From the IMG/VR virus record IMGVR_UViG_3300027513_000010: a stretch of 64,000 bases of DNA; one strand, given 5' to 3'. The notes beneath the pieces were generated by a model. It was not told where the DNA came from and did no database searches. It saw only the letters and a program-made list of their open reading frames with translations. Both the position numbers and the translations under genes were made by a program. This stretch comes from a virus. Within the stretch, counting starts at the first letter, position 1, and every line of letters begins with the position of its first letter. Below, one piece after another: positions 1 through 64,000 of the stretch.

Positions 1-869
1 CGCAGCACCGACCACAAGTCTTCCGGTGTGTCCTGAATCGGAGTGCCGGTGAGACCGATCACGTTCTTGACATCTCGGGCGAGATACCACAGCGCTCGGG
101 TCTGCTTGGCCTTCGGGTTCTTGGCTCGGTGAACCTCGTCCACGATTATCGATTTGAAAGCGATCTTTTGCAGTGGCCCATCCACCTTCTCTTTGTCAGC
201 GAGAGACACGGAGGGGAACGGAGCGTGACGGCTCCGCAAGCGGGCGGTGTCATAGCTGACGATGTAGAAGTCGGCAGTCTCGGCGAGAGCGGCATCGACT
301 TGAGCCGGGGTTCCCTCAACGATCTGTACCGAGGCTGTGGGGAAGAACCCACGAATCTCGGAGCGCCATGTTCGGAGCATCGACTTCGGGGCCACGATGA
401 GAACCGGGAAGATGGCTCGGGACTCTTCCAGTAGAGACAGCCCGGCGAGAGCAGTACGGGTCTTGCCGGTTCCGGTCTGATCGAAGAACAAGTATCGACC
501 GGCGAGATTGATGAGATGCCCGCCCACAAGTTGATACGGGTATAAATCTGAGAAGCCTGGCTTGCCCACCGGGTACTGATCGGTGCCGTCGTCTTCCAAC
601 TCCAAGGCAGTGCGAAGCAGCGCCAGGGTCGCTTTGGCCGGAGCCACCTTGTAGCCCCAATCCGTGAGTTCCGGCCCAATCTCAAGCTCGGTTCCAAACT
701 CGGCACGGAGGGCGAGAGCAGACGGCCAGGACAACGGCACCGACCACCACTTCTCTTCGTTGTGCCATTTGGCACCAGGCACAGCCTTCACCGACTCTTT
801 GAATCGGTACGAAGTGGAAACCATAATCCGCCCTGGAAGGCTCTCGACTATCTCGGCAAAGGTGCTCAT
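1..869 (-). CDS. SNF2/SWI2-family helicase with N-terminal HARP-like domain (truncated by window edge; absent from ORF track)
   Basis: Manual translation from ATG 869: MSTFAEIV...KAVPGAKWHNEEKWWSVP (HARP-like)...DQTGTGKT (Walker A)...VLIVAPKS...IIVDEVH (DExH)...LTGTPIQDTPEDLWS. Confidence 0.9.
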   Translation of the reverse strand, partial: MSTFAEIVESLPGRIMVSTSYRFKESVKAVPGAKWHNEEKWWSVPLSWPSALALRAEFGTELEIGPELTDWGYKVAPAKATLALLRTALELEDDGTDQYPVGKPGFSDLYPYQLVGGHLINLAGRYLFFDQTGTGKTRTALAGLSLLEESRAIFPVLIVAPKSMLRTWRSEIRGFFPTASVQIVEGTPAQVDAALAETADFYIVSYDTARLRSRHAPFPSVSLADKEKVDGPLQKIAFKSIIVDEVHRAKNPKAKQTRALWYLARDVKNVIGLTGTPIQDTPEDLWSVL

Positions 870-877
870 TGGGCTGA

Positions 878-2385: not shown

Positions 2386-2808
2386 CTACAAATTCGTCAT
2401 CATGCGATTGGCGAGCAGGGCGTGTCGCAGAGCATCCCGAGCGTGCGGCCCGGTGACGGAATCGAAAAGGCCCAACTGATGGAGATGCTCGTTGGTATAG
2501 GCGTTCTTCGCGTCAGCCGCTTTCTGCAATCTCATGGGCACGCCCATTCGCCTTGATAGGAAGATGACAATGCCGATGGTGTAGAGAGCGTCGTACTGCC
2601 GGGTCTTTTTGGCGGTGCTCGGTGTGATGATGTATTGCTCGATGCCGATACCGTCCGCAGTGGCGATGAGAATTTCCAGCTTCTCGCCTACGTCAGTAAA
2701 CGAGATTTGCTCCGAGTAGGCCACTGCACCATCGGCAAGCATCACCAGGCCGGTTGTCGAGCCGGGATCGATACCGAGAATATTCCTCATTCGATCCGTT
2801 GCCGCCAC
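2386..2808 (-). CDS. RuvC-like Holliday junction resolvase
   Basis: ILGIDPGSTTG, IGIEQY, HARDALRHA catalytic-type motifs. Confidence 0.8.
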   Translation of the reverse strand: MAATDRMRNILGIDPGSTTGLVMLADGAVAYSEQISFTDVGEKLEILIATADGIGIEQYIITPSTAKKTRQYDALYTIGIVIFLSRRMGVPMRLQKAADAKNAYTNEHLHQLGLFDSVTGPHARDALRHALLANRMMTNL

Positions 2809-3188
2809 GCTTCCAAGTCACCGATCAGTGACGACACCATCCCAACGAGCGGCACCGGCCTCACTACGTTGGAAAGATGCTTGATGGCGTTCATGGTGGC
2901 TTCGGCGTTCATCATCTCTTCCACTTTTGAAAGCACGTCGAGGGTCTTGTCGATCTGCCGGATGATGTCTCCGGTCTCGGTCTTGGCGTTGGCTTCTGTG
3001 ATACCGGCGGCTCGGCCAATCTCGATGGCGTTGGCGAACCAGCCGATCATCCAGCCTTCATCGATTACTTGTCGGCCCGGCTCCGCTGCGTCGGCAATCT
3101 CCCGAGCGACCGCGCACCATTCCTCGGCCCATACTTGAGCGTCGGTCGTGCTGTGCAGTCTCAGTGTCCGTGTTGTCTCGTCTTCCAT
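2787..3188 (-). CDS. Hypothetical protein
   Basis: 133 aa between polymerase and resolvase; AGGA RBS. Confidence 0.6.
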   Translation of the reverse strand: MEDETTRTLRLHSTTDAQVWAEEWCAVAREIADAAEPGRQVIDEGWMIGWFANAIEIGRAAGITEANAKTETGDIIRQIDKTLDVLSKVEEMMNAEATMNAIKHLSNVVRPVPLVGMVSSLIGDLEAWRQRIE

Positions 3189-3198: not shown

Positions 3199-4938
3199 TC
3201 ATGTCAGGTCAGCCCAGGTCTTTCCCGGCCCGTTGATGCTGGCGGTCAGCGGCACCATGAGTTCTCGACTCTCCATCGAGGCAATGATGGCGTGACTGGC
3301 CTCTTCGACATCTTCCTCGGGTATGGAGAACACGACTTCGTCATGGACGGGAGCCAAGAGGTAATCCTCAAACCCGGCACTGGCGAGTGCCACGAGTGAC
3401 CTTTTCAAAAACTCGGCGGCACTGGCCTGGATCACATAATTCGTCCCGGCGTAGAGAACATGCGGATCGACCGGCAGGAACCGCCCGCCCAATGTCATCA
3501 CTCCACCGCTGTTCCGTGCCTCCCGTTCGATGCGCTTCGCCATCCGAGAGAGACCAGGGTAAGACCGGCTCACCAAGGCCTTGACTTCGGCCATCCGAGC
3601 TACCGGGATTCCCGCCCTGATTGACATGGTCTCGACACCAGCGCCATATAGGAAGCTGTAAAAGAATGTCTTGATGACTTGCCGCCGGTCGTCGGTCTTG
3701 ATGATGGCCGGGTCTCCGTAGATGTCACGGGTCGCTTTCAAAAAGAAATCGCCTTCAGAGAAGGCCTCGGCCAGCGCCCGGTCTTCAGCCAGCGATGCCG
3801 CGATTCGTAATTCGATCTGATCCATGTCAGCCGAGAGCATGACTTCGCCTTCACGGAGCGGGATGATGGCCCGGCGCACCATCCGAGAGTCGGGGTCGGA
3901 GCTTGGTTTTGGAAGAGTCTGAAGCGCCGGATTTGAAATCGACATGCGACTCGTGCGTGCCGCCATTGTGTTGATGCTCGGGTGAACCACTCCCTCGTGC
4001 AGATACCCGAGGAAATTTGAAAAGTAGGCGCTCGCCATCTTGTCGATCTTCCTCACCCGAAGCACAGCCTTGGCGACGTTGGCCGAATCCCGGTCGCCGT
4101 AGGCGGCAACACGTTCCAGCACGTCCTTGTCAACGGCGACCCGACCGCCCCTGGTTTTCTTGGTGAGTAGCCCACGCTCGGTGTTGGAGATGAACCACCG
4201 GCCAAGCTCGTCGGTCGAGGTCAGCGACACGATTCCGTGGTAGCTCAATTTCAAGCGGTCGGATTCCGACCGAAGCTCGGCGAACTTCTCGGCGGTGAAT
4301 TCCCGGTCGATCCTCATGCCGTTGGCTTCCATCCGAGAGCAGATGGCCCTCACGTCCATCTCCAAGTCGAACACCGATGAGGCGACGATCTTCTGGACTG
4401 CGTCAAGCTCGTAGATGCGTGAAGCGAGAATCACGTCGAGAGCGGCGTAATACAGGAACGGCTCGTAGTCGAGAGGTATGTCTTCCCACCGCCACTTCTG
4501 TTTCTTCATCGCCAGCTTGAGAGCTTGCTCCCCACCGCCGTCGCCACCAAGCAATCGTCTTGATGCGGGCTTGAGCTTGGAAGGCTGATTCGGTTGGAGA
4601 ATGCGGAGGGCGAGCATGGTGTCGTCAATCTTTCGCCAGGGCACGTCAACGTCATGGCGAGCCAGGCTTGGCACGTCGAAGCTGGCGTTGTGGATAACGA
4701 GCCTGCCGGGGAAGTTTTGAAAAACGTGGTTAAACAACCCCGGCCACTCAGGGAGCCGGGCAAGCCAGGCCTGGTTCCGGTTCCCGACTTGGATCAGGCG
4801 CACCCTGAAATCGGGATGGTGGTAGTCGAGACTCGTGGTCTCGGTGTCGATGGTGATGTACCGCTGGCCTTCACACCAAGCGGTGAAGTCGGCTACGTCG
4901 GAGCCGGAGTGGATGAAGCGGTAGAGGTCGTCTGGCAT
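3199..4938 (-). CDS. DNA polymerase family A with 3'-5' exonuclease and no 5'-3' nuclease domain
   Basis: TIDTETT (ExoI), HNASFD (ExoII), YAALD (ExoIII), ADMDQIELR (motif A), KTFFYSFLYG (motif B), PVHDEV (motif C). Confidence 0.95.
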   Translation of the reverse strand: MPDDLYRFIHSGSDVADFTAWCEGQRYITIDTETTSLDYHHPDFRVRLIQVGNRNQAWLARLPEWPGLFNHVFQNFPGRLVIHNASFDVPSLARHDVDVPWRKIDDTMLALRILQPNQPSKLKPASRRLLGGDGGGEQALKLAMKKQKWRWEDIPLDYEPFLYYAALDVILASRIYELDAVQKIVASSVFDLEMDVRAICSRMEANGMRIDREFTAEKFAELRSESDRLKLSYHGIVSLTSTDELGRWFISNTERGLLTKKTRGGRVAVDKDVLERVAAYGDRDSANVAKAVLRVRKIDKMASAYFSNFLGYLHEGVVHPSINTMAARTSRMSISNPALQTLPKPSSDPDSRMVRRAIIPLREGEVMLSADMDQIELRIAASLAEDRALAEAFSEGDFFLKATRDIYGDPAIIKTDDRRQVIKTFFYSFLYGAGVETMSIRAGIPVARMAEVKALVSRSYPGLSRMAKRIEREARNSGGVMTLGGRFLPVDPHVLYAGTNYVIQASAAEFLKRSLVALASAGFEDYLLAPVHDEVVFSIPEEDVEEASHAIIASMESRELMVPLTASINGPGKTWADLT

Positions 4939-10267: not shown

Positions 10268-11311
10268 CTACTTGATGATGTCGCTCGCGCCTTCGGCAAC
10301 CCACGCACCGGCTGTCCGGCGGTAGGCCTTGTACGAAGACGTGCCGTCATTCCACCAAACAACGTCGTCGTCGGCAAAGGTTCCGGTTGGCGGTGTCGCC
10401 ACTGGATCGGATGCGACGATGGCGACGGCGTCGGGGATGGGGGTCAGAGACACACCGGAATCGACCCAATTCCTCGCTCGCACAATCCACACATCGCCGG
10501 TAGCCGAGTCCACCAGCAACTCGCCATTCGGCTCTGATCCGGCTGGCCCTGCGGTCGGGGCATCCCCGACACTCGCTGCCGCTGCCTCGGTGATGGCGCA
10601 CTCGCCAACGGTGAACTCCGGCTCCGTGGGGAATCCGTTTCCACCACCGGCCTCGCCTTCCTTCCACCCGAACGGAGGCAGTGTCGTTGACCGAACGTAA
10701 GAGAACGGATTCACGAGCGCTTCCTTGTAGGTGACGAAGTCATCACCCGCGTTGTTCGGGTTGAGTCCGTTGGTGACGAGCGCCGGGTTACCGAGCGCTT
10801 GGCCGCTGAACTCATTGGCGAGAGCCGAGTTACCGAACTCCCTGTCGCCGTCGTACCGCACCTTGACGTAGGGGAAAGCCCAATGCCAGAACGGTTGCCC
10901 GGCTGCGGGCTTGCCGCCCACGTTGGCCGTTGACCAAATCTCGACTGCGACCGGGTTCCCGGCAATCGATCCAACCTCGGGGGAGGTATAACCGACGACC
11001 AGGCCTTCGGCATCACAGATCACTTGCCCACCAGCGAGCAGTGCCGCCGCCTCGGGATCGGGCGAGCACAGCGAGAGATTGAAATTCAATCGCTTGAGAG
11101 TGTCGTCCGCTTTCCACGAGATACACACGCCACCGTCCGCACGCTTCTCGGTTATCTCATCGCCCTCTTCGTACTCGGGGCTGAATGAGGCCGTGATGAA
11201 ACCGCGGGTGGTCAACACCGGAAAACGCGGATCGATAGACCCGTCCAATTGCAGACGGGTTATACGAATCGCGTTGCCCTGTACCGACGACGCTCCGTCC
11301 CTATATGCCAT
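10268..11311 (-). CDS. Major tail protein with C-terminal extension
   Basis: IRITRLQLDG...SPEYEEGDEITEKRADGGVC...LKRLNFNLSLCSPDPE. Confidence 0.85.
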   Translation of the reverse strand: MAYRDGASSVQGNAIRITRLQLDGSIDPRFPVLTTRGFITASFSPEYEEGDEITEKRADGGVCISWKADDTLKRLNFNLSLCSPDPEAAALLAGGQVICDAEGLVVGYTSPEVGSIAGNPVAVEIWSTANVGGKPAAGQPFWHWAFPYVKVRYDGDREFGNSALANEFSGQALGNPALVTNGLNPNNAGDDFVTYKEALVNPFSYVRSTTLPPFGWKEGEAGGGNGFPTEPEFTVGECAITEAAAASVGDAPTAGPAGSEPNGELLVDSATGDVWIVRARNWVDSGVSLTPIPDAVAIVASDPVATPPTGTFADDDVVWWNDGTSSYKAYRRTAGAWVAEGASDIIK

Positions 11312-11340
11312 TTGAAATCTCCTTCACTATGGCTTGGGGG

Positions 11341-13327: not shown

Positions 13328-13333
13328 GCGGAA

Positions 13334-13389
13334 ACCTCTTTCCTTCCTAGCGGTACTTCCGACGCGGTCTAGGTCACAAGAAAAGAGGT
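13334..13389 (-). promoter_or_regulatory. Leader hairpin occluding the capsid RBS
   Basis: ACCTCTTTTCTT pairs with AAGGAAAGAGGT (contains the RBS); inner CCTAG/CTAGG stem. Confidence 0.6.
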
Positions 13390-13481
13390 ACGTCGCACTA
13401 AGCGCTCAGTCGCTCTACCCGAGACCATACAAGATCGCGAAGATCGAAAGCAAGTAGCCTGCATCTTGGGAAGCGTGATTT

Positions 13482-13739
13482 TTGAAAGGGAGAACAACCG
13501 GCGAGCTTTTGGTTCTACTCATCGGTGGCACCATCTGTGTCTCGGTGCTGGTTTCTCTCATCGTCATTGCGATTATTGAAATCAGCGATCCCACCACCGA
13601 CACGACTCAAGGCATCGCTCTTGTCTCCGACACCATCAACACTCTGATCGGATTGCTGGCTGGATTTATTGCCGGGCGCACCGATGCCCGACGCACCGAT
13701 TTGGAAGGGCTGGTGGAAAGGAAAGTGGAAGACGCATGA
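13482..13739 (+). CDS. Putative holin (two TM helices)
   Basis: 85 aa, two hydrophobic segments, charged C-terminus, upstream of the endolysin. Confidence 0.6.
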
Positions 13740-14284: not shown

Positions 14285-14285
14285 C

Positions 14286-14317: not shown

Positions 14318-14366
14318 TGAGGAATCTTACCCCACACCCCGTCTTTCAAAACTGTAGGGTTGGGCT

Positions 14367-20401: not shown

Positions 20402-20423
20402 GTCTGACCCCTTTCTTGTATGG

Positions 20424-25236: not shown

Positions 25237-25273
25237 CTGGGTCTCCTATCTGGGTGGTGTCTGAGTCTCTGAC

Positions 25274-25999: not shown

Positions 26000-26094
26000 A
26001 GCCATTTCCTGCCTGCACACCAACCCACCCGTTGGCCGTACTCGATGTGCCCGGCCCCTGAAGACTCCGTTTTTGAAACTGGCCTGGCCTTCAG

Positions 26095-40538: not shown

Positions 40539-41949
40539 ACGCTACGCCGGTCTCTCGGATGAAGAGAAAGGCTCTCTCACCGATGGGATCAATCCCAACG
40601 ATCTTTTATGGTCTTCTGAATTCTGGCTCCGTCCCAAGCAACTGCGAGCACTGCACTCTGATGCCTGGATCACACTGATCCTGTCAGGCCGTGGTTTTGG
40701 AAAAACACGGACGCTCTCGGAGTGGGTCAAGAAAAAGGCCGAGGCCATGCCTGGCACTCGTATCGCCTTGATCGGTCGAACCGTGAGTGACGTGCGGGAC
40801 ACGATGGTTCAGGGTGAGGCGGGAGTCCTGGCAGTGCATCCTCCCGAGTCACGACCCGAATACATGCCTTCGGTTCGGAAGGTGGTTTGGCCCAACGGGA
40901 GCATGGCAATCACTTACTCGGCTGAGTCGCCTTCTCAGCTTCGTGGCCCCTCTCATCACTTTGCCGCCGTCGATGAGCTTGCCGCTTGGAAGCTGGTGCC
41001 CGACGATTCGGGAGCCAACGCATGGGACAACCTCTTGATCGGTTGTCGGCTTGGCGATACCCCGCAAGTGATGGCCGTCACCACGCCGAAGAGGGTGCCG
41101 CTCATCAGGGAGTTGGTCACGCAGGCGAAAGACCCGAGCTACAACGTGAAGATTTTGAATGGGTCAACGATGGAAAACAAGTCCAATCTGCCCGAGGAAT
41201 ATATCGCGCAGCTTCTCCATCAGTACGGCGGAACTTCCCTGGAACAGCAAGAGCTTCTCGGGGTGCTTCTCGATCATGTCGAGGGTGCGCTGTGGCGGGA
41301 CAAGGACATTCTCATCGAGGGCTTGCCGGAGATTCCACGCTTTTTGAAAGTCATCGCCGTCGATCCCGGCGTGACCTCCGGCGGGGATGCCACCGGCATC
41401 GTGGTTGTCTACGGGTCGCCGGAGCGGGTTCGGAACGACCGGCGAGCTTGGGTGGTGGACGATTTGACCGAGCCAGGGCTTGAGCCGGAAGAGTGGGCCA
41501 AGCTCATTGTGGATGCCGCCCGAGTTCACAAGGGAGCGCTGGTCGTGGTCGAGGGGAACATGGGCGGCGACCTCGTCAGGACGGTGATTCATCAGATCGA
41601 CCCATCGGTACCGGTAGTCACGGTGCACGCTTCCAAATCGAAAGCTGCCCGAGCCGAGCCGGTGGTGATGGCGTATCGGATGGGCCGGGTTCGGCATCTC
41701 GCTCAGTTCCTCTTGCTTGAGGACGAGATGACTTCATGGGAGCCAACGGGTCGCTGGTCGCCTAACCGAATGGACGCGATGGTGCATGGCATCCGCGCTT
41801 TGCTGATCGATGACACTGAGATGCTCGGCTTCGGATCGATTCGCTCTTCGATGGAGCGCTATCGGGAGACCACCATTCACCTTCCCAACTTCCTGCGGAG
41901 CAGAGCGGACGTTCCAATGGGTGCGTGGCGCAGAATCAACCGGGACTGA
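40504..41949 (+). CDS. terL: Terminase large subunit
   Basis: SGRGFGKT (Walker A), AAVDEL (Walker B), IAVDPG...GDATGIVV and SPNRMDA nuclease motifs. Confidence 0.95.
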   Translation: MSSRLLEQSVAERYAGLSDEEKGSLTDGINPNDLLWSSEFWLRPKQLRALHSDAWITLILSGRGFGKTRTLSEWVKKKAEAMPGTRIALIGRTVSDVRDTMVQGEAGVLAVHPPESRPEYMPSVRKVVWPNGSMAITYSAESPSQLRGPSHHFAAVDELAAWKLVPDDSGANAWDNLLIGCRLGDTPQVMAVTTPKRVPLIRELVTQAKDPSYNVKILNGSTMENKSNLPEEYIAQLLHQYGGTSLEQQELLGVLLDHVEGALWRDKDILIEGLPEIPRFLKVIAVDPGVTSGGDATGIVVVYGSPERVRNDRRAWVVDDLTEPGLEPEEWAKLIVDAARVHKGALVVVEGNMGGDLVRTVIHQIDPSVPVVTVHASKSKAARAEPVVMAYRMGRVRHLAQFLLLEDEMTSWEPTGRWSPNRMDAMVHGIRALLIDDTEMLGFGSIRSSMERYRETTIHLPNFLRSRADVPMGAWRRINRD

Positions 41950-44455: not shown

Positions 44456-44470
44456 AACCCGGTTTTCAAA

Positions 44471-49961: not shown

Positions 49962-51271
49962 GGTACGTCGAGCAGTACGTGAATCCCGACGAGATTCCCC
50001 GCATCAACGAATCGGTGCGTGGCACCCACAAGTCCGTTATCAAAGTGTGGGGCACGCAGTACGACCCGGCTCAGTGGAAGCTCCATCCGATGGTCGATCC
50101 GACCGGATGGACGGAGACCAAGTTCAAGGTCATCAGTGGGGAAGTCACCGAGACCTTGGGCGAGGCCATCACCCGAGAGCTTTCTCTGTCGGTCGCTTCT
50201 GATTATTGGGACGATCCTTTCGACATCTTGGTTGAGGCCACTCCCTACAAATCTCTGATCGCTGTCGCCCGAGGAATCGAGACTGTGAATGGCGAGCAGA
50301 TGCTTGTCCCGCTCGGGGTCTACCGGCTGCACTCGGTTTCAACTTCCGGTAATGCCGAGACTGGCTACGAGTTGGGGGTCACCGGGTACTCGATGGAGGC
50401 GGATATTCGGGAGGCTCGCTTTTTGAAAACTCCCATCGCTGGTGTGGCCCCCGGCGAGATTGGCGAGAACGTAATGCTCGGCATACTTCAGTACCTAGTC
50501 GAAGAGGCGTTCCCCAAATCCATCTCTGGCAACCTCGTTCCCTTCCGTGCCAACACCGGAGGCCAAGACCTCGACTACGTCTTCCCGCCGGGCAGTGTGC
50601 TCACCGATGACCGGGAGCGCCTCGATCTGATTTTGGAATATCAGGAGGCGAACGAAGTGTGGGGCCGCTTCGACCGGGACAATTCGTACGTCATTGACGA
50701 CATGCCGAGTCCGGCTGATGCTCCCATCGATTTTGTAATCAACGGTGACGAGGCCGGGGTGCTCATGCGATACGACATGGAGTTCACCCGAGAAGAGGTC
50801 TTTAACGCAGTGCTCGCCTTCGGGGAGTACGCCATCGGGAATTTGAAATTGCAGGCTTCGCATCTGGCGAAGGACATGGACGTGCTCTCACCGACCTATT
50901 GGGAGGGGCCGTTCGGCCAGGTGCCGATGTTCCATCGGGTGGAATTCCTGCCCAACAACACGGCGGGAGCCAACAACACCGTCATTCGGGTGGCGAACAA
51001 CCTTTTGCGGAGGCGGAAGGATTATCACTCGGCGGTCAATTTTGAAACTGTTCCAAATCCGCTCATCGAGGCGGGTGACGTGGTCGAGCTTCGCTATCCG
51101 GTCAATCCGACTCTGACATCAGGAGCCAGCGCCGGACAGGAGTTCCTTTCTGAATTTCACTTGATTCGCTCTATCACCATTGGACTCGGGGCTGACACCA
51201 GCTTCTCGGCTGAGACCGTGGCGAACGGTGAGACTTCCACGGTTTTGAAAAGACTGAGGGTGCCGGAGTGA
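49958..51271 (+). CDS. Minor tail / baseplate hub-like protein
   Basis: VPLGVYRL...DRERLD...EVFNAVLA...[12 protein letters not shown]...[11 protein letters not shown]. Confidence 0.75.
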
Positions 51272-54200
51272 TAACCCCGAAGGGCCGTCAAAAGCTCATT
51301 CGGGAGATTCAGACCCGAGATGCTCTGCGCTTCGGGGAAGACAAGCCGGTTCGGATGCAAGTCGGAACTGTGGTCTCGGTCGGGCCAACCGGGGCCAATA
51401 TCCAGCTTCAAGACCGAGAGATACGACAAGTCATCGTGCATGGGATTGTGAATCCCACCGAGAACGTCGTTGTCTTTTGGGCGGGACACACAGCCATTGC
51501 TATCGGGGAGCCGCCCGAGGGCGGCGGCGGTGACGGAGAATTTCTGCCTCTTGTTGGCGGCACGTTGACCGGCCCGCTCTATCTTCCTGCTCCCAATCCC
51601 ACCAACCCGTCTGAGGCGGCGCACAAGGGCTACGTGGATAGCCGGGTCTCTTTGGTGGTCTCTTCCCATCATGTGGTGCAATCAACCGCTCCGACCGCAC
51701 CACCGGATGGTGCTCTCTGGACGAACCCCACCACCGAAGTAACCCAAATTTGGGACGCAGATAATGCAGAGTGGATCGAAGTGGGGGGTAGCGATGGTGC
51801 CTTCCTCCCCCTTGCCGGTGGCACCATGCTCGGCGACCTCATTCTCAATGAGTCACCTACCGCTGGCTCGCCACCATTGCAGGCGGCAACGTGGCAGAAC
51901 ATCGGAGACCTCTACACCTACATCGATTCCGAGGTTGGAGATGTCGCCGATGACCTAGCGCTCTATCTCCCGCTGACCGGCGGGACTCTGACCGGAGCGC
52001 TCAATCTTGCTGGCGATCCGCTGTTCCCCGACGAGGCGGCGAACAAGCATTACGTCGATAGTCAGATCGGTGCAATTGAACTCACCCCCGGCCCCGAGGG
52101 GCCGCAAGGCGATCCAGGGCCAATCGGCCCCGAAGGGCCAGTAGGAGCCACCGGCCCCGCAGGAGTGGAAGGCCCACCAGGGCCACAGGGTGAGGAAGGC
52201 GAGCAGGGGCCAATAGGTATCACCGGCCCGCCAGGAGACACCGGAGCCACCGGAGCAACCGGAGCGACGGGAGCGACCGGCCCGCAAGGGCCAGTCGGCC
52301 CCGAGGGGCCAATCGGAGCTACCGGCCCTGCCGGGCCACAAGGTGAAGAGGGAATTCAAGGGCCAGCGGGAACACCAGGCGCTACCGGGCCGACCGGAGC
52401 AACTGGCCCGACCGGAGCTACCGGCGATCCAGGGCCAGCGGGAGCAGATGGAGCTACCGGCGCTACCGGCCCGAAGGGAGATCAAGGCGACCCCGGCCCA
52501 ACCGGAGCCACCGGCGCTACCGGGGCAGAAGGGCCGCAAGGCGATCCCGGCCCGACCGGTGCGACCGGAGCAACCGGCCCACAGGGTGATCCCGGTGCTA
52601 CCGGCGCGACCGGCTCTACTGGCCCTCAAGGTGATCCAGGGCCAGAAGGCCCAATAGGGCCAACCGGCCCGACCGGGGCAACCGGCCCCGCCGGTACCAG
52701 CGTCACCATTGAGGGCACCGACACTTGGCCCAACATCGATGCCATCCCGTCGCCCGACACCGGCGACATGTGGATTCTCTCGGCAACCGACACCACTGCC
52801 CCCGACCGTCCCGGCCCGATAACCGGAGGATTGGCCGGTGACGGGGTCATGTGGGACGGGACTCAATGGGTCAACGTCGGGCCGATTCGTGGGCCAGAAG
52901 GCCCGCAAGGTGCCACTGGCGCAACCGGAGCTACCGGCCCTCAAGGTGACGTTGGGCCTGCCGGAGCCACCGGAGCCACCGGAGCCACCGGCGCGACCGG
53001 AGCGCAAGGCCCACAAGGTGAGATTGGCCCCGAAGGGCCGCAAGGTGAGATTGGCCCCGAGGGGCCACAAGGTGATGTCGGTGCCGAAGGCCCGCAAGGG
53101 CCAGTGGGAGCTACCGGCTCAACGGGAGCAACCGGCGCTGATGGGGCGGAAGGCCCGCAAGGTTTGGAGGGGCCAGCGGGTGCCGAAGGCCCACCAGGGC
53201 CGGAAGGCCCACAAGGGCCACCGGGAATTGACGCTGCGCCGCATGTTGTCGATGCAACCGAGCCAGTGTCACCAGCCGATGGAATGTTGTGGGTCGATCC
53301 CGACACCGGAACCTATCGGGTGTGGGACGAGGACAACTTGCAGTGGGTCGAGGTCTCGGGTTCGGGAAGTGAGGCTCTTCATGCTGTCGGAGACCCAAGC
53401 GAGAAACCAGCCGATCCACCCGACACCTTCATTTGGGTTGATACCGATGACGAATCTCTAGGTGGCGATCTTCCATCCGGTGACGCTCAAATATGGGACG
53501 CTGACAATGGCGACTGGCTCAATATCGGCGACCGGCATCTCATTCAAAACACCGAGCCGGTCTTACCGCCGGATCGTTTGATTTGGACGAATCCCGATGA
53601 GAACCTCGCGCCGGAGGCGGCATTGCTTCCGCTTGGTGTGGTGCTTCCGTATGCCGGTCTGACCGCGCCAGCCGGATTCTTGCTCTGTGACGGAGCGCCC
53701 TATTCGCGAACCGGTTACGCCGGTCTGTTTTCACAAATCGGAACCACCTTCGGAGCAGGCGACGGGACAACCACCTTCAACGTGCCGGATATGAGAGGCA
53801 GATTCCCCATAGGGCTTGGCACGCTCGACACGGACACCTATGGGATGGGTGCGGTTGGCGGTGAAGCTCGTCACGTCTTGCAGCCGGGGGAAGGGCCAAT
53901 TCACACTCACACTGTCAACCCGCCGAGCACGACATCTGGCGGTCGCTCGGTAAGCCACACTCACAACATCGACCCGCCAACCACCGCATCGGGAGGCAAG
54001 GATGCCAACCACGATCATGTTGTCACGCTGAACACGTCGTCCCGCCCGACCGCTTCCGGTGCTCACGGTCACACCCAGGAGACACGCCTCGCCACCGGAT
54101 CGGGAGCGACCGGAACCGATCAGACAATGGGTGTCACCAGCGCATCCGACACCGGCCAGCCTCACATTCACAACGTCAACATTCCGGCCTTCGATTCTGG

Positions 54201-54339
54201 TGGAGATACGCCTAGCCACACTCACAGCATCGACATCGCTCAGTTCAACACCGGTTCCACTCCCGCCGCTACGACGGCTCACGAGAACCGCCCGCCTTAC
54301 CTCGGGTTGAATTTCATCATCAAGGCAACCTCGGGGTGA
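51268..54339 (+). CDS. Long tail fibre: collagen-like G-X-Y repeats plus tail collar domain
   Basis: Extended GAT/GPQ/GPE triplets at about 52090-53225; [11 protein letters not shown]...LCDG...[12 protein letters not shown]; terminal [15 protein letters not shown]. Confidence 0.9.
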
Positions 54340-54344
54340 TGTAG

Positions 54345-55361
54345 ATGGCAGTCACCAGGGTTTGGAGTGAGTCCGAAGGCGATTGGATTCTGATTGCCGG
54401 AACGGTCGATGTCGGCGGGGTGCCAGTCGATGCTGAACTCTTCGTGTCTATCGATGGCGACACGATGGAGGGGCCGCTCATTCTTGAGGCTGACCCCATC
54501 GCCCCTCTGGAAGCAGCGACCAAGCAGTATGTCGATGCGATGGGCGGTGGCGGGGCCGGAGGGGTGCCAATCGGAACCATCCTTCCTTACGGTGGCTCTG
54601 CCGCTCCGACTGGATTCTTTCTCTGTGATGGGTCACTCAAGGATCGGACAACCTATGCCGAGCTTTTCGCCGTCATAGGAACGTCTTACGGAGCGGGTGA
54701 CGGCACTACCTCTTTCAATATTCCCGATTTGATTCGTCGGTTCCCGTTGGGAGCAGGCACAACTTCTGATGCACCCCGAGCAGGAACCAGCGCTCCCGGT
54801 GCGAGTGGCGGAAACATCAACCACACGCACGACGGGCCATCCCACACGCACACCGGCCCGAGCCACACTCACACCGGCCCGAGCCACACGCACGATCTTG
54901 GAAACTCGGCATCGAGTGGCGGCGGCGGGGCGACTTCATCAGGCGGTGCTCACTCTCACTCGGTTGGCGACACTGATGCTCGCGGCGGTCACGATCACAC
55001 TTTCTCTGATACCGGCACGGATTCGTTCTCGACTGGCGGGCCTTCGGCAACAACTCTTCACGAATCTGGCCCCATTTCAGGAGCAAGCTCAGGGCATGGT
55101 CACTCCGGTTCGGTGTCAATCAGCATTAGTGGGACGACGAGCGCAGCCGCCAACCACACGCATAATGTCGGTGGAACCAGCGCATCAGCTACTCATACTC
55201 ACACAATTCCTCACCACACTCACGACTTGGGATCATCGGTGGCAGCGGGAACCGGGGCTACCGGGGCGTCGGGAACCGGGGCGACCGGGGCATCGGGAAC
55301 CGGGGATACCAGCACAGCTAATCCGCCGTACCAAGTGGTCAATTACATGATTAAATATTGA
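54345..55361 (+). CDS. Second tail-collar fibre protein with HxH repeats
   Basis: PIGTILPYGGSAAPTGFFLCDGS...FNIPDL; HTHTGPS repeats; NPPYQVVNYMIKY. Confidence 0.85.
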   Translation: MAVTRVWSESEGDWILIAGTVDVGGVPVDAELFVSIDGDTMEGPLILEADPIAPLEAATKQYVDAMGGGGAGGVPIGTILPYGGSAAPTGFFLCDGSLKDRTTYAELFAVIGTSYGAGDGTTSFNIPDLIRRFPLGAGTTSDAPRAGTSAPGASGGNINHTHDGPSHTHTGPSHTHTGPSHTHDLGNSASSGGGGATSSGGAHSHSVGDTDARGGHDHTFSDTGTDSFSTGGPSATTLHESGPISGASSGHGHSGSVSISISGTTSAAANHTHNVGGTSASATHTHTIPHHTHDLGSSVAAGTGATGASGTGATGASGTGDTSTANPPYQVVNYMIKY

Positions 55362-55371
55362 GAGGCCAGAC

Positions 55372-55563
55372 ATGCTATTGAAACGACGAAAGACTGAGAC
55401 CGAGAACACCATTGACCCCGAGCAATTGCTGACATGGATTTCGGGACTGCTTGCCGGTTGTCCTGATTGCACCGAGGATGCACGGAGTTGGGCCGAAAAG
55501 GTTGACCTCACTCACAACGCACCCGAGCCAGAGTCAGAGAGTAAGGTCGCTCCATCTGAGTAG
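55372..55563 (+). CDS. Small hypothetical protein
   Basis: GAGAGG RBS; 63 aa. Confidence 0.55.
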   Translation: MLLKRRKTETENTIDPEQLLTWISGLLAGCPDCTEDARSWAEKVDLTHNAPEPESESKVAPSE

Positions 55564-55577
55564 GAGGGAAGCGGGCA

Positions 55578-55667
55578 ATGACCATCAACCTCGACGTGAT
55601 TCTCAAGATTGCGCTTTTGGTTCTCGTCGTCCTGGGAATCATCTGGCTTGCAGCCACCATCTGGTAA
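55578..55667 (+). CDS. Small membrane peptide (29 aa)
   Basis: GGAGGG RBS; MTINLDVILKIALLVLVVLGIIWLAATIW. Confidence 0.55.
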   Translation: MTINLDVILKIALLVLVVLGIIWLAATIW

Positions 55668-55768
55668 CCCGTCGCTCGTCTTCGTGTGACTATGCTCCCA
55701 CGAAGTTTCTAGACCCTGAACTGATCTGACGGCACGACACAACGTCGAAAGGGAGTTCGGGGTCGAAC

Positions 55769-56512
55769 ATGGTGCTATTGCTCAATCAGTCCGTAGATGC
55801 GCCGGACATCTTCGGTACCAAGCACAACCTTCTGGACACCGGGAATCGACCGGGCAGTGATGGGCGGTGGGAAGAGGGAGTCGTCTTCGTTCCGCAGGGT
55901 TGCTTCGATGTCAATGTCGAAGAGGCCAACTGCCCGCCCGCTGAGAAGTCAGCCGATTTTCAAGATTGCCCCGATGCGGTGTCATTCGTTCCTTTCGTGA
56001 TCGAGTTCGGAGTGCAATTCATCGGCCACGAGATAACCGAGGCGGTTGAACGGGAACTCGACATCAAGACTTCCGCCGCCATCGAAGAGGCGATATGGGG
56101 AGGGACAGCAACTTCCCCGACCAATCCCAAGCTCTCGGATGGCGTTGCTACCGGCGGCACCGCCGCCAACTCACGAGAGGCGATGGCCCGGTTGGAGGCC
56201 AAGCTGATCGCAGATGGGATGCAGGGCGGGACAATCCACATGTCGGCCTATGACGCAGTCCTGGCCGAAGGTGCGATGACCGAGAAGGACGGCAAGCTCT
56301 ACTCATCCGTCACCGGCAACCCCGTCGTGGTTGGGAACTATCCGGCTGGTCAGATGGCAATACACGGTGGCGAAATCGATGTGTATGTGTCAGAGGAATT
56401 CACCACTTCCAGCTACGAAGAGTTGCTGTCGAACACCCTGCTCTACAAGGTCGAACGGCTGGCTCTCGCTGTCTGGAACCCCTGTTACGTATTCACGCAA
56501 TCGGTGACATGA
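55769..56512 (+). CDS. Major capsid pentamer protein
   Basis: RWEEGVVF...FVPFVIE...AAIEEAIWGG...AMARLE...GNPVVVGNY...VERLALAVWNPC. Confidence 0.75.
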   Translation: MVLLLNQSVDAPDIFGTKHNLLDTGNRPGSDGRWEEGVVFVPQGCFDVNVEEANCPPAEKSADFQDCPDAVSFVPFVIEFGVQFIGHEITEAVERELDIKTSAAIEEAIWGGTATSPTNPKLSDGVATGGTAANSREAMARLEAKLIADGMQGGTIHMSAYDAVLAEGAMTEKDGKLYSSVTGNPVVVGNYPAGQMAIHGGEIDVYVSEEFTTSSYEELLSNTLLYKVERLALAVWNPCYVFTQSVT

Positions 56513-58134
56513 GGTTTTTTGAGGATGATGGTGGGCGGCAACAAGCACCGCCATTCAATTCCCCACGGTCGTTCTCGGCCTCAGCCAAGAAGATCGACCT
56601 CACCAAACGTAACGAAGAGACCCACAAGCCCGAGGCCTGGCAGACGGCGGCGTGGTCGTTCTACGACTCCATCGGCGAGCTTCACTTTGCGTTCAATCTG
56701 ATCGGGCAAATTCTTTCTCAGATCAGGCTCTACGCCGCCATCGTGGATGACCCTGAATCTGCGCCGGTGCGATCCAGTCTCTTTTTGGAAGAGTTTGCAA
56801 GAGAGCACGAGGTCTGGCCGGACAACACCGCCGAGTTGGTCTCGGCGGCAGACAAGGTGCTCTACGACCTATTGGTGAACTCGCCGGGAATGGGTTCGGG
56901 ACTGCTTCGTGAACTCGGGATCAATCTCTCGGTCTCCGGCGAGTGTTACTTGGTTCGCGAAAAGCAATGGACGATTGCCTCGACCGACGAGTTGAAATCC
57001 AACGGGGCGGGTCAGGGCTACACCATTCAACGTAGCCGGAAGACCTCGACGGTCACGGCGAGCAAGGATGACAAGCTCCCCGACAACACCTTCGTCGCCC
57101 GTATCTGGCGCTCCCATCCTCGCTTCTCATCCGACGCTGACTCGTCCATGATCGGTGTGCTTGACTCGTGCGAGCAACTGACCTTGCTCACGCAGGCCAT
57201 CCGAATGATGACTCGGTCTCGGATGAACGCCGGAGTCATCTTCGTGCCGGACGGCCTCTCCGCTGGCATCGATGACGACAACCCGCAGAGCATCGAAGAC
57301 GCTCTGATTCAGGCGGCGGTCTCCCCGTTGGAGGAAGAGTCAGCGGCGACTTCGGTGGTGCCATTGATCCTCACCGGCCCGGCTGCGCTCGGTAAGGAAT
57401 TGAAAAAGATCGACTTGGGCCGTCCCGTAGACGAGCAAATGGTTCAGCTTGCCGAGGCAACTCTTGACCGGGTTTTGCAGGGGATTGACATTCCAAAGAA
57501 CGTGGTGCAGGGCTTGAGCGATGTCAAGTTCTCCAACGCCATCATCATTGACGACAATCTCTACAAGGCCCACATCGAGCCGCTGGCCTTGATGATCGTG
57601 GATGCTCTCACCACGGTCTACTTCCGACCGGCGCTGAAAAAGCTCCATCCCCAAGAGGATGAGACCCTTATCAATCGATTGGTGATTTGGTTCGATCCAT
57701 CTGACATTGTCACCCGACCCGACAAGAGCACCGCGGCCAATGAGGGCTTTGACCGGAACATCATCTCGTACCAGGCGTGGCGGTCGGCTCGGGGCTTCAC
57801 CGATTACGACAAACCGACCGATGACGAGCTTCTCACTCGCATGGCTTTGGAGCGGACACAGATTCCTCCCGACATTGCCGCTGCTCTCATCGAGAGGCTC
57901 AATCCCGAATACTTCGCTTCTCTTCGGCAAGCCGGGCAGGAAGAGGCCGGTATCCCCGACGACATCTCGTCACTGCTTGAGGGCGGTGGCGGGGAGGGAA
58001 GCGGGATGGACGAACTCGGGGCGATGTTCAGATCAGAGACCAACCCAGCCGGTGGCCGCACACCACCGGACGAAGCCATGCAGGGCGGTGAGGTTCAGCC
58101 GGGAGGCAATCTGCCGCCGAGGGAGCAGCCATGA
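56509..58134 (+). CDS. Portal protein
   Basis: WQTAAWSFYDSIGELHF...RIWRSHPR...SRMNAGVIFVP...VVPLILTGP; 541 aa. Confidence 0.85.
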   Translation: MRFFEDDGGRQQAPPFNSPRSFSASAKKIDLTKRNEETHKPEAWQTAAWSFYDSIGELHFAFNLIGQILSQIRLYAAIVDDPESAPVRSSLFLEEFAREHEVWPDNTAELVSAADKVLYDLLVNSPGMGSGLLRELGINLSVSGECYLVREKQWTIASTDELKSNGAGQGYTIQRSRKTSTVTASKDDKLPDNTFVARIWRSHPRFSSDADSSMIGVLDSCEQLTLLTQAIRMMTRSRMNAGVIFVPDGLSAGIDDDNPQSIEDALIQAAVSPLEEESAATSVVPLILTGPAALGKELKKIDLGRPVDEQMVQLAEATLDRVLQGIDIPKNVVQGLSDVKFSNAIIIDDNLYKAHIEPLALMIVDALTTVYFRPALKKLHPQEDETLINRLVIWFDPSDIVTRPDKSTAANEGFDRNIISYQAWRSARGFTDYDKPTDDELLTRMALERTQIPPDIAAALIERLNPEYFASLRQAGQEEAGIPDDISSLLEGGGGEGSGMDELGAMFRSETNPAGGRTPPDEAMQGGEVQPGGNLPPREQP

Positions 58135-60245
58135 CAAACGAACGAGTGCTCGACCTCTATGCCGAGTGGGAGGAAGCCCTTTCCTATCCCGAGCCAAATT
58201 TGGAAATCGTTGCTGGTTTGGAGGCCCAAGCTCTGAACGAGGGGATTGATCTTCGGGAGGTCAATTACGTGCTGGTGCATGGGCTGACCGCCGCCGTTTG
58301 GAATCCCGACCTTCATCCCCGAGGCCGGGACGGACGGTTCATCGAAGTGATGGGTCTCATTCAGCTTTTTGATTTTGGTGATGGGCCGGACGGCACCAGG
58401 GGCAAGGTCAAAGAGATTCGGCCCGGCAGAACCAAAGGCAATCCCGACATCGACGTTGAGCTTTCTGATGGGCGCACGGTCACGGTGAAGCCGAATCAAG
58501 TAGCGACTGCTCCCGAGGTCAAGGCCGATCTGGATTTTGGACGGCGAGACAGCGGTGACTTCATCCGGTCGGTGCCGGAGATTCCAAGCTCTCGGGAGAT
58601 GCAGGAGTTTGAGGGTCGGACTGATCCGACCGCCGAGCGGCTGCGTCGGATGGAGGCGTATCGAAATCGAGTTCATCAGACTCCCGAGCCTTCCTATCTG
58701 CTTGAGACCGAAGGGTTGGAAGAGGCATTTTCGACTGGCGTTCCCAAGTCGGTTGCTGAGGGATTTCAGCGGTATCGACTCGATGCCGAGAGCCGGGGCG
58801 AGCAGGTACTTGACCTCGATGATTGGGTACGGGCGGGACAGCCGGGGCCGGAAGCACCGGAAGTGGTGCCCGAGGGCAGGCCTTTTGAAAATCTATCCGA
58901 CTCTGATCTTCAGACTCGCTACGCCGAGTCGGTTGACCAACTGATCGGCGACCTTCCTGAAGGCGAGATGCTCGATGTGGAATTGGAAAACACGCTGCTC
59001 CGTGAAGAGCTAGATCGTCGTTCGATACCACGGCGGAAAGAGGATCGACCTTTCCGCAATCTCAGTGATGACGAGCTTCGTGACACTTACCAACGCACGG
59101 TCGATGCCGCCATTGGCGACGTTGATGAGCAATTGGTCGAATCGCTTGGTTTGGATGCCGAGTATCTCCAAGAGGAATTCACGGCTCGTGGATTGGATCG
59201 GCCTCGGACACCGGCTTCGCCTGCCGAGCCTCGGGCCTACAACGAGAGTCGTGAGGTTGGGAACCTCATGGTGGGTGACGAAATCATTTTGCCCGGTGAC
59301 ATTCCCGGTGTGATTGAGGATTTTGAATTTGCTGAGAATGATCCTGGCCGAGTCACGATTCGTACCGACAACGGCAGCTACCAAGGCAAGACCACCGACA
59401 TTCTCCCGAGCTTTCGAGAGGGCACCGATGAGGGGCTGACTCCCGCTATTGCCGGGGCCAATACCAATCAGATCGGCGAAGAGATTTCGGTCGAAGCTGG
59501 TGAGGTCGGGTCGAGAGAGAATCCACTCCAAACCTCGGACGTGATGGAGGCGGTTACTGCTTTGCACGAGGGGAAGTACGTCGAGCTACAGAGCGTCGAT
59601 CAAGTCTCGACCTTGCTTGATGAGCTTGCCCGAATCGCTAACGAGGCCAAGGCTGCGGGCGAAGATGCTCCCAACTACGACCTCTGCTTGGTCTCGGTTC
59701 CCGACACCAACCTCTTCTGCGCTGAGTCGAAGGGCATCCCGAGAATCCAGATGCCACAGCTTTCCGGTATCCCGGTCGAGGGGTCTCCCGCCGATGCGCT
59801 CCCCAAGAACAAGGATGGCGAAGTTGACATCGGGCCTGCCTTTGCTCAATACCTTCGGGACAAGGGCATCTCGGTCACTGAGAAGAGGCGACCGGCTTCG
59901 CATCTCAAGGCCTCTCAGAACGAGCTAGTCGGGGCCAAGGTCGCCGGGATGATGAAGTGGCTGGAAGGCGATACCGAGACTGCCCGCAACGTCATCCGTG
60001 AGTCATCGATTTTCACGACCTCAGATGATTACGTGGTGGACGGCCACCATCGGTGGGCAGCGGTGGTCGGTCTGGATGCAGCGGAAGGCGGGCTGGAAGA
60101 CCTCGATATGCCAGTGCAGGAAATCGACCTCCCCATCCTCGACGTTTTGAAAGAGGCCAATGACTTCGCTACTTCTTACGGCGTGCCGCCGAAGGGTGCC
60201 GGAGCAGGAGCGAGTGTGGGAGGCGCGCCCGGTGGTGCTGGATAA
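58131..60245 (+). CDS. Large acidic virion-associated protein with C-terminal ParB/Srx-like domain
   Basis: WNPDLHPRGRDGRFIE; LKASQNEL...YVVDGHHRWAA. Confidence 0.75.
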   Translation: MTNERVLDLYAEWEEALSYPEPNLEIVAGLEAQALNEGIDLREVNYVLVHGLTAAVWNPDLHPRGRDGRFIEVMGLIQLFDFGDGPDGTRGKVKEIRPGRTKGNPDIDVELSDGRTVTVKPNQVATAPEVKADLDFGRRDSGDFIRSVPEIPSSREMQEFEGRTDPTAERLRRMEAYRNRVHQTPEPSYLLETEGLEEAFSTGVPKSVAEGFQRYRLDAESRGEQVLDLDDWVRAGQPGPEAPEVVPEGRPFENLSDSDLQTRYAESVDQLIGDLPEGEMLDVELENTLLREELDRRSIPRRKEDRPFRNLSDDELRDTYQRTVDAAIGDVDEQLVESLGLDAEYLQEEFTARGLDRPRTPASPAEPRAYNESREVGNLMVGDEIILPGDIPGVIEDFEFAENDPGRVTIRTDNGSYQGKTTDILPSFREGTDEGLTPAIAGANTNQIGEEISVEAGEVGSRENPLQTSDVMEAVTALHEGKYVELQSVDQVSTLLDELARIANEAKAAGEDAPNYDLCLVSVPDTNLFCAESKGIPRIQMPQLSGIPVEGSPADALPKNKDGEVDIGPAFAQYLRDKGISVTEKRRPASHLKASQNELVGAKVAGMMKWLEGDTETARNVIRESSIFTTSDDYVVDGHHRWAAVVGLDAAEGGLEDLDMPVQEIDLPILDVLKEANDFATSYGVPPKGAGAGASVGGAPGGAG

Positions 60246-63200: not shown

Positions 63201-64000
63201 TGAGAAGTCGGAGGCGGTCAAGAAGTCGAAGGACACGATTCTCTCCAAGGCGAGTTTCAAAACCCGCAAGGACTTCACACCGGGATCATGGGTTGCCGCA
63301 CCCGATGGTTTCACCGGCAAGGTGTGGGAGGGCACAGATGATGCTCTCGCTCAATTCCCACAGGCAGTCAGGATTTACGGCGCTGACGGCAAGTCCCGAA
63401 TTATCAACGCCAATCTTCTCGTTTCGATAGACGAGCCGAGCACTCCGGTTCCGGTTCCGGTCGAAGATGTCGCCATTACCGATGCTCCCTTCTGGCCCTT
63501 GAAACTCAAAGACGGGAACGATCCCCGCATTGGTCAGTACGTCCGAGCCTTCGGGCCGGGTGACAAGATCACTGAGGGAACAATCAATTGGGTTGGCCCG
63601 CCCGATGGCAAGCAGGCCAAGGTCGCTCCCCTGCTTGCTATCACAACCGATGAGGGCAAGGTCATTCGGAAGACCTTGAGCAAGACCATCTTGCTCAAAG
63701 ATGTCGATGGTGCTCCGGTTCCCTCGGCGACTACCGAAGAGGGACTACCCGAAAGCGCCAAGGCTTCGGTCGAGATGGCGATTGATTTCACGGAGACACA
63801 AATCTCCGATGCTGCCATCAAGTATGTCTCCCCTGACGGCAAGACCCTGGCACAGCCGCAATGGGAGCGGGACAACTGGCTTTCCGGCTCGCCGTATCGC
63901 ACGCTGACCAAGGACGGGTTCGCTCCCAAGGTTGGAATGCGAGTGCGAACTACCGATGACCAGGCCGCAGTCATCGTCATGGAAGACGACGTTTTCAAAA
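60232..64000 (+). CDS. Very large protein (over 1250 aa, truncated) with HipA/PI3-4K-like kinase domain; absent from ORF track
   Basis: Manual translation open to the window end: WNPDLHPRGPDGKFIE; GAQGGSNPGGFY...FYIK...ANEMLANELY...DAWLANWDVAG...DNI...RIDTGGSL. Confidence 0.8.
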   Translation, partial: MVLDKPELRGLELSEDNVESLLDMFNDGTTRWYATRRARGFATAGLLAGSYWNPDLHPRGPDGKFIETGGFIRWLLDGIWQRGRVENILPSGKLIVAPDDEKLGANVVIPTNQAYGLPTPKGTIHSTPDPQSDMEMDNWIKSGAQGGSNPGGFYTTTETEKLAVDPTSDYVTQVAESLGDDLSFIDYPNQSLAFKSAMGTPQYFVATYTDKAGNQEVIYGNGGSGYQQGVNPAWDEARNAADLKVWVTTDPAVQEAARLALEHEDIAPGTQFYIKRTKSLDHGANEMLANELYKVAGVPVPDLYFGQHQTVASKILKSATPEGTVVPLSKALDDPDVIRQIRENMVVDAWLANWDVAGMTHDNIMVVDGVPYRIDTGGSLQYRAQGAPKGSQFGRVVGEVDSYLNSSINPSSSQVFAGITLNEQKMGAQRVAAIRPSQIKNMVSGAGLDPDVADILIARRDYLLEKYGVADPFASYTPPKLITVGKGNVSSQMFWNPISNQWEPGTINFTPSNLINKMEAELATLWQNSDPELGPVLGDTVVAYPGGGRIGLFRVTGVDMTGNLQMVSAVDPDNHTVYMDTTVPGSHYSPRVVEPTESFNQLHTQYEVAQTNNQLVGHSLWNLFNLTISNEGSDKPPLALQPQALVSKDIFADAKAGDFLFHRYPDPEKPGTQHDVVYRIDGISESSIAMTSMLDGKERFISRPEWENEDVEIKAQWHIPDPFTQDQTLGMMLRDDLITADDTATSTEFSGGEPEDTDLAEELDQPTAWNTTPYTPADLAALGVSPTYTDPTTGVNAHVQIGESVGLDSIYEDFVASLQGLPPIEDAGTHHNETSLNEWVGQSVILSNPVNPEHSSTGLFYVKSAAFDVKKSYYGDKTIIGNLYLISPTGENKTLAISTQASQTSFRLQTATTLDASIPQTIPTFKKNGDIIYEGVLVGHHASGYNNYAATILPEFTINGAKTTITSSRQRELRKNIGKNIIPQLQPTVVEKSEAVKKSKDTILSKASFKTRKDFTPGSWVAAPDGFTGKVWEGTDDALAQFPQAVRIYGADGKSRIINANLLVSIDEPSTPVPVPVEDVAITDAPFWPLKLKDGNDPRIGQYVRAFGPGDKITEGTINWVGPPDGKQAKVAPLLAITTDEGKVIRKTLSKTILLKDVDGAPVPSATTEEGLPESAKASVEMAIDFTETQISDAAIKYVSPDGKTLAQPQWERDNWLSGSPYRTLTKDGFAPKVGMRVRTTDDQAAVIVMEDDVFK

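Follow-up and report, generated by a model that had tools for sequence, protein, structure and literature searches.

A short, nearly self-complementary word under selection throughout the DNA of a siphophage

The word and its placement in the window

The virus record IMGVR_UViG_3300027513_000010 of IMG/VR provides 64 kb of DNA (hereafter the window, meaning the whole stretch at its full length) from a siphophage, and its genes for replication, packaging, head and tail are interspersed throughout with one short word. This word, TTTSAAA (S being G or C), occurs exactly 66 times (34 with G and 32 with C), i.e., about once per kb, compared to an expectation of 2.7 copies from base composition and 5.0 from an order-2 Markov model. 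The original prediction had claimed about 65 copies of TTTGAAA/TTTCAAA, rare reverse arrangements, many longer extensions and enriched one-off variants, and all of this was borne out: the copies lie where it had placed them, 15 of them are extended to TTTTSAAAA, the variants TTTGGAA and TTTGAAT are enriched four- to fivefold, and the G+C content alone, given there as about 62%, had to be corrected to 59.2%. The excess is not shared by other A/T-tract words of the same length, since AAASTTT (at 32551), TTTWAAA and AAAWTTT (W being A or T) have a single copy each in the window.

Among all words of seven and eight bases, TTTTGAA (69 copies on both strands), TTTGAAA (66) and TTTTGAAA tower above the rest, the latter being by a wide margin the top 8-mer with 49 copies, complement included, against 0.93 expected; the enrichment is therefore ~13-fold for the 7-bp word and 50-fold for the 8-mer. 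When the sites are read in the G orientation, position -1 is occupied by T in 48 and by A in 14 of 65 sites and the mirror position is unconstrained, and the base after TTTTGAA is A in 48 cases, T in 17, C in 3 and never G. These preferences identify the selected word as the asymmetric, nearly self-complementary TTTTGAA[A/T], a core that is seen as the quasi-palindrome TTTSAAA. Information is limited to 7-8 positions, with unconstrained flanks, and between TTT and AAA a spacer of one or two G/C is enriched (66 and 11 copies, respectively, vs. ~2.3 by chance), no enrichment being detected for longer G/C spacers or for the reverse order.

The starts of the 66 copies of TTTSAAA are as follows.

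Sites 1-17: 153, 2926, 3403, 3736, 3932, 4016, 4716, 5396, 6096, 6756, 6864, 7726, 8823, 9161, 9352, 9794, 11311
Sites 18-34: 13481, 14344, 15418, 15513, 17346, 17848, 17871, 18344, 19399, 19501, 19754, 21918, 22789, 23785, 24497, 25972, 26072
Sites 35-51: 28084, 28211, 31146, 33101, 35337, 35452, 35621, 36643, 37643, 37743, 39777, 39881, 39959, 41343, 44464, 44677, 44749
Sites 52-66: 44977, 48247, 50422, 50842, 51041, 51244, 58884, 60146, 60810, 60957, 61176, 61724, 62768, 63255, 63993

Individual sites, and the one long interval lacking them, are described below by coordinates and strand.

4716..4722, plus strand: site in the PolA (family A DNA polymerase) gene, retained in four lineages despite a swap of the centre base (codon alignment column 224)
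11311..11317, plus strand: site overlapping the start codon of the major tail protein, whose gene is on the minus strand (from sequence context)
13481..13487, plus strand: non-coding site upstream of the major capsid gene, in the gap 13328-13668
14344..14350, minus strand: non-coding site ahead of the M15 lysin gene, in the gap 14247-14366
26072..26078, plus strand: non-coding site beside the iteron region, in the gap 26024-26192
41343..41349, plus strand: site in the terminase large subunit gene, also present in the L007 lineage (alignment column 839)
44464..44470, minus strand: site abutting the tape-measure start codon (from sequence context)
51251..58883, no strand: site-free stretch of 7.6 kb in the tail-fibre region, with only 4 synonymous opportunities in its genes

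The genes around them were called heuristically from open reading frames (ORFs) and third-position G+C, a procedure that adds noise and cannot generate the signal, and were identified by Pfam and PHROGs scans.

3-869, minus strand: SNF2 helicase
2386-2808, minus strand: RuvC-like resolvase
3199-4938, minus strand: PolA
7689-8471, minus strand: head-tail adaptor
10268-11311, minus strand: major tail protein (phrog_792 match)
11375-13327, minus strand: major capsid protein
14367-15056: M15 lysin (Pfam)
19886-20500, minus strand: Ltp lipoprotein
22526-24982: PrimPol-D5 helicase
37348-39846: MuF-zeta fusion
40504-41949: large terminase
42380-42820: Fic protein
44471-47164: tape measure protein (match to tape-measure PHROGs)

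As had been proposed, most copies (60 of 66) lie inside called genes, on both strands and in every frame that does not create a stop, where they encode the amino-acid pairs FE, LK, FK, SK, IQ and others. The sites at 9161, 11311 and 44464 do fall on gene junctions, which the original prediction had noted, but these constitute a minority feature only. TTTTGAA is found 35 times on the plus and 34 times on the minus strand with no regional polarity, and with respect to the containing gene 33 copies are co-oriented and 26 opposed. A putative replication origin is located near 25.5 kb, where the iteron AATTAGTTC and its complement reach 7 copies vs. 0.05 expected (window ~25270-26080, beside the PrimPol-helicase gene); the strands of TTTTGAA are balanced on its left (14:15) and on its right (20:18), without any switch. 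Gaps between sites are roughly exponential, with a coefficient of variation of 1.2 that denotes random or slightly clustered placement. The suggestion of DNA bending or phasing found no support, as neither a helical phase at 10-11 bp (Rayleigh test) nor a significant preferred spacing of 100 or 200 bp was detected (P = 0.066 for the fullest bin after allowing for bin number). The only long gap, from 51.2 to 58.9 kb, reflects protein composition rather than a boundary, because the genes there offer just the four opportunities listed above. The long ORF 51268-54339 in this region has an odd composition (65.7% G+C at ~52-54 kb, with a strong excess of A over T) and a long antisense ORF, probably encodes a Gly-rich or collagen-like tail fibre, and presents zero opportunity for the word.

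Selection on the DNA itself

Shuffling the synonymous codons of 52 confident genes, with proteins and codon usage kept, yielded 3.8 ± 1.8 copies against 54 observed, and the enrichment thus persists under the codon-preserving shuffle as it does under the Markov model, two of the checks that had been proposed. Within genes the word occupies 53 of its 124 synonymous opportunities (43%), the corresponding figure for AAASTTT being 0 of 93. Selection at the amino-acid level is weak, since the 124 opportunities compare with 88 ± 9.5 in shuffled proteins and those of control words are raised too. Coding and non-coding density are about equal, and the 5.8 kb of non-coding DNA holds 6 sites vs. 0.62 expected. 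The word is not a protein motif, because the encoded peptides vary in sense and antisense, and a peptide or codon-pair cause can be ruled out, many frames, the antisense strand and non-coding DNA all being affected.

The window also displays an extreme avoidance of restriction sites: 35 of the 64 palindromic hexamers are absent, GGWCC has 0 copies vs. ~220 expected, and the missing non-palindromic words include CGTCTC, GAGGAG, CTGGAG, CTGAAG and CAGCAG. Codon pairs are reshaped by this avoidance, TTC-GAA, TTC-GAG, CTG-AAG and CTT-AAG being zero or nearly so and CTC-GAG, CTG-GAG and GTG-GAG all zero. The word could in principle be a by-product of such avoidance, or of codon-pair or mutational bias, and have no function, as the massive loss of words including TTCGAA, TTCGAG, CTGAAG and CTTAAG removes the usual Phe-Glu and Leu-Lys codons. 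However, when 87 avoided words were forbidden in the shuffle 6.3 ± 2.1 copies were obtained, and with 393 forbidden, TTTGAAG among them, 7.4 ± 2.2, still far from the 54 observed, by which restriction avoidance is ruled out as the cause. Moreover, the excess is equal in non-coding DNA, the trait is also present in lineages without avoidance of GGWCC or TTCGAA, more site positions are conserved than the background would predict, and the reversed word is never made in spite of its 93 opportunities. An origin without function is thus already largely refuted, and we consider it very improbable.

Selection for a repeated recognition site in the DNA as such, which the original prediction had proposed, is strongly supported by the shuffles, the use of synonymous opportunities and the non-coding excess, together with the conserved positions and the sister lineages described below. 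The data require selection on double-stranded DNA for a specific word, independently of transcription, translation and replication direction.

The phage, its sister lineages and a one-base switch

Sister phages were found by protein searches with the terminase and the polymerase, as partial contigs analyzed in pieces of 16-22 kb. Three lineages share the enrichment (PolA and terminase large subunit, TerL, as identity to the window).

L104: PolA 68%, 56.4% G+C, 27 TTTSAAA in 21.7 kb, GGWCC absent
L105: PolA 65%, 58.0% G+C, 25 TTTSAAA in 21.7 kb, GGWCC present 41 times
L106/L102/L007: PolA 65% (TerL 76%), 54-56% G+C, 15-20 TTTSAAA per 20 kb plus 6-16 TTTSSAAA, no avoidance of GGWCC or TTCGAA, methyltransferase gene adjoining PolA

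In the codon shuffle of each piece TTTSAAA was the top of 128 odd quasi-palindrome classes (z-scores 5 to 18; between 5 and 11 for the three sister lineages), and it was top or tied-top among all 7-mers. Among the four motif-bearing lineages, window included, two avoid GGWCC and two tolerate it, and TTCGAA is tolerated in one; the trait therefore belongs to the clade, being enriched in sister lineages with PolA 65-68% identical whatever their restriction-avoidance profile. The next lineage out, represented by L011 and L107 from one NCBI assembly (PolA 58%, TerL 65%), has TTTSAAA at background level and is instead enriched in TTCWGAA (TTCTGAA and complement), with 27 copies in 21.4 kb of L011 and 24 in 16.5 kb of L107, i.e., 1.3-1.5 per kb at z-scores of 8-9. 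TTCTGAA is one base away from TTTTGAA and is strand-balanced as well, so that the compact quasi-palindromic form with a degenerate centre recurs, as TTT-S-AAA in the one case and TTC-W-GAA in the other. No site-by-site conversion from TTTTGAA to TTCTGAA was seen at homologous columns of L107, where a milder excess of TTCSGAA was also recorded (11 vs. 3.2). Nothing comparable was found in the distant relatives L005, L094, L095, L096, L108, L014 and DSL-LC01.

Conservation in related contigs, another check that had been suggested, was confirmed at the level of single positions: of 12 sites aligned between the window and the L007 lineage 4 are retained, vs. 6.8% of all 7-mers (p = 0.007). At column 224 of PolA the coding strand carries the C form in the window and the G form in L104, L105 and L106, a Gln/Glu change in which both arms are kept. 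Most sites turn over between lineages, and how many sites there are seems to matter to selection as much as where they lie; the word has been maintained for long and is able to change by one base.

Further peculiarities were noted in the sister pieces. Genes for N6/N4 DNA methyltransferases lie beside PolA in L106 (11743-12690) and L107 (7085-8275); the window, L104 and L105 have none there. Only in the L106 lineage is TTCGAA not avoided (23 copies in 21.7 kb), a hint that this lineage may methylate the site in its own DNA. In L106 (1-21743), GATTTCA and its complement occur 23 times vs. 3.7 expected, on both strands, most copies being read as Asp-Phe codons. In L011 (1700-18600), CCGAGTA has 11 copies on one strand and a single copy on the other; those in plus-strand genes mostly adopt the frame xCC-GAG-TAx, so that the excess may stem from peptides or codon choice and not from a polar signal in the DNA.

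The window is not the entire phage. A DNA polymerase identical to its PolA is encoded on a 92.9-kb contig and CheckV estimates a 13-kb fragment as 14% complete, on which grounds the whole genome is ~93 kb and the word array runs on past the window start. The sequence is not an assembly artefact, since fragments 99-100% identical are present in at least seven IMG/VR samples. Such identical fragments were all that the IMG/VR search returned, and a megablast search against known phages gave no match. The closest named or cultured phages, of which DSL-LC01 is the nearest, have <40% protein identity and infect Actinomycetota, and an LPXTG protein and the Ltp protein likewise indicate this group (protein atlas look-ups, at phylum level only); these protein resemblances point to a putative actinobacterial host. 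A terminase scan of GTDB genomes provided no clue to the host, the relatives being at most 42% identical and spread over many phyla. Gene content varies among lineages in the interval from PolA to the SNF2 helicase (window 2787-3188 to 962-1390), where no counterpart of ORF 962-1390 or ORF 1413-2318 was detected in the pieces retrieved for L104, L105 and L106.

Possible readers of the word and comparison with known systems

For comparison with possible hosts, TTTTGAAA and the reversed word were counted in 401 evenly drawn Actinomycetota genomes (five of them, G121, G002, G049, G337 and G319, are unpublished; their counts are low and the outcome is independent of them). None has an excess of TTTTGAAA over the reversed word near that of the phage (49 vs. 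0 in 64 kb); the strongest reach 30 vs. 3, 67 vs. 13 and 483 vs. 146, and most of the high-G+C genomes contain the 8-mer 0-10 times in total. Literature searches for the word and for over-represented phage motifs found nothing relevant.

The feature is real, strongly selected and clade-conserved, and belongs to the known class of genome-wide recognition words. On the most likely reading, TTTTGAA[A/T] would be a dispersed, orientation-independent site for a sequence-specific protein that binds or processes double-stranded DNA. Its reader would probably be encoded in the core genome of the phage and co-evolve with the word, a source that we favour because the word tracks phage phylogeny while the restriction-avoidance profile, used as a proxy for the defences of the host strain, varies within the clade. 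With ~90 copies per genome, the word could tag the phage chromosome as "self" in a GC-rich host that nearly lacks it, and would be an efficient mark since it is about the rarest kind of 7-mer in such a cell; coating or compaction, protection, recruitment to the replication zone and choice of DNA for packaging are candidate processes. We lean, tentatively and with slightly less than even confidence, toward a positively selected word read by a probably phage-encoded protein that marks or organizes phage DNA. A more specific version is possible but rather doubtful, namely self-marking, in which a lineage-specific reader and the ~90 copies would together allow the phage to single out its chromosome, whether for protection, for compaction, for forming replication zones or for packaging it selectively, the specificity being re-set by one base (TTTTGAA to TTCTGAA). 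Such a re-set between sister lineages is what would be expected if related phages compete or avoid cross-recognition.

Several points weigh against the reading toward which we lean. Among the ~60 window ORFs scanned against Pfam and PHROGs, none matched helix-turn-helix, ribbon-helix-helix, ParB, Lsr2, HU or methyltransferase families, and the two binders originally put forward fared no better: ORF 962-1390, described as helix-turn-helix-like, has no match of that kind and no detectable homologue in the fetched stretches of motif-sharing sisters, and ORF 58131-60245, described as ParB-like, matches neither ParB nor helix-turn-helix families. The search covered the window, and ~29 kb, a third of the genome, lies outside it. 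A reader encoded by the host is also conceivable, as co-divergence with hosts would equally make the motif track phage phylogeny. With 7 bp and a distance of 4 bp between its half-site centres, the site itself leaves too little room for a classical helix-turn-helix dimer, and its asymmetry (T at -1 on the G side only) fits a symmetric dimer poorly. Finally, the relatives were sampled as 16-22 kb pieces only.

If the word were instead read by a host factor, it could be Chi-like and tame an end-processing nuclease (RecBCD or AdnAB), or it could recruit a host nucleoid protein such as Lsr2; this would account for a short, asymmetric word of 7-8 nt, like Chi, and for its one-base change between sister lineages, which could follow different hosts. 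Phages without recombination genes do accumulate Chi to ~1 per 1.9 kb (PMC12315714), and many mycobacteriophages depend on the Lsr2 of their host, which relocates to the zones of phage replication (PMC10066036). The known Chi-rich phages are, however, strongly polar (20:3 and 32:0; PMC12315714), compared to 35:34 here, in none of the 401 Actinomycetota genomes is the word far more abundant than its reversed control, and the trait does not depend on which restriction sites a lineage avoids. Lsr2 recognizes the minor groove of AT-rich DNA, but words just as rich in A/T, such as AAASTTT and TTTWAAA, are unenriched and the sister word TTCTGAA, with two G/C, is not an A/T tract, so that Lsr2/H-NS nucleation, one of the mechanisms initially proposed, is not upheld and a host factor in general appears unlikely. 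The phage encodes its own PrimPol-D5 helicase (22526-24982), and a template word at which this enzyme starts lagging-strand primers would agree with the ~2 kb between sites per strand, within the bacterial Okazaki fragment range, and with a strand-specific word on both strands, which suits forks moving in either direction. The lack of a polarity switch around the putative origin and the uneven spacing of the sites speak against it, as does the fact that described primase words are 3-5 nt long and not known to be enriched in their genomes; we regard it as quite unlikely, less probable than a host factor. Equally hard to favour is a word targeted by an enzyme that modifies or nicks DNA sequence-specifically, with marks that would help the phage to package or replicate its DNA or to escape defence. 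In its compact 7 bp, near-palindromic form and degenerate centre the word looks like a typical Type II recognition site, it contains TTSAA, the AgsI site, and N6/N4 methyltransferase genes adjoin PolA in the L106 and L107 lineages; but the window yielded no candidate methyltransferase or nuclease, nor did the same interval of L104 and L105, which carry the strongest signal, and modification alone supplies no reason for enrichment.

Whatever its reader, the word indicates that DNA-level signals can strongly shape codon choice in phages, which is relevant to codon-based host prediction and phage recoding. Type II restriction-modification sites such as GGWCC and TTSAA resemble it in being compact, odd-length quasi-palindromes with a degenerate centre and one-base specificity shifts between relatives, and differ in that phages deplete them, whereas here the word is enriched while true restriction sites are eliminated from the same genome. 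Tens of copies through coding DNA acting as a genome-wide address for a DNA-binding protein are also a property of the cellular arrays of Noc (Noc-binding sites), SlmA (SlmA-binding sites), MatP (matS) and FtsK (FtsK-orienting polar sequences, KOPS), whose words have 8-16 bp and are polar (KOPS) or regionally restricted. ParB/parS or Noc arrays need a ParB-family protein and palindromes of 14-16 bp, in contrast to 7-8 bp and no ParB domain in the scanned window ORFs. We know of no dispersed binding array of this chromosomal type in a phage at such density.

The stoperators of Cluster A mycobacteriophages are 13-mers with just over 20 copies per genome, which are found in promoters and in short gaps between genes and point in the direction of transcription (PMC9283540, PMC6550527). 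They likewise place many copies of a short asymmetric word across an actinophage genome and are read by a phage protein, with specificity diverging between relatives. The stoperator-like system initially suggested is not favoured here, since the sites have 7-8 bp, number ~90 per genome, lie inside genes in ~90% of cases and are not oriented (33 co-oriented vs. 26 opposed). No repressor or integrase was found among the scanned ORFs of the window (64 of ~93 kb). Accumulation of Chi has been described in phages lacking recombination modules, such as the E. coli phage LLS and the P. aeruginosa phage MD8 (PMC12315714), where a short asymmetric word similarly occurs far above chance in coding DNA, at ~1 per 1-2 kb. 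Chi is co-oriented, clustered toward one genome end and matched to the over-represented Chi of the host, in contrast to the balanced orientation and uniform placement of an A/T-rich near-palindrome that is unenriched in the sampled actinobacterial genomes. The functional analogy to Chi and stoperators may nonetheless be useful in spite of these unshared features. Chi, uptake sequences, KOPS and stoperators are genome-wide selected words each of which revealed a DNA-handling machine, and an A/T word imposed on nearly half of its possible synonymous positions, kept where PolA has diverged to 65% identity and altered at a single base in a sister lineage would by the same token point to a whole-chromosome reader not recognized so far.

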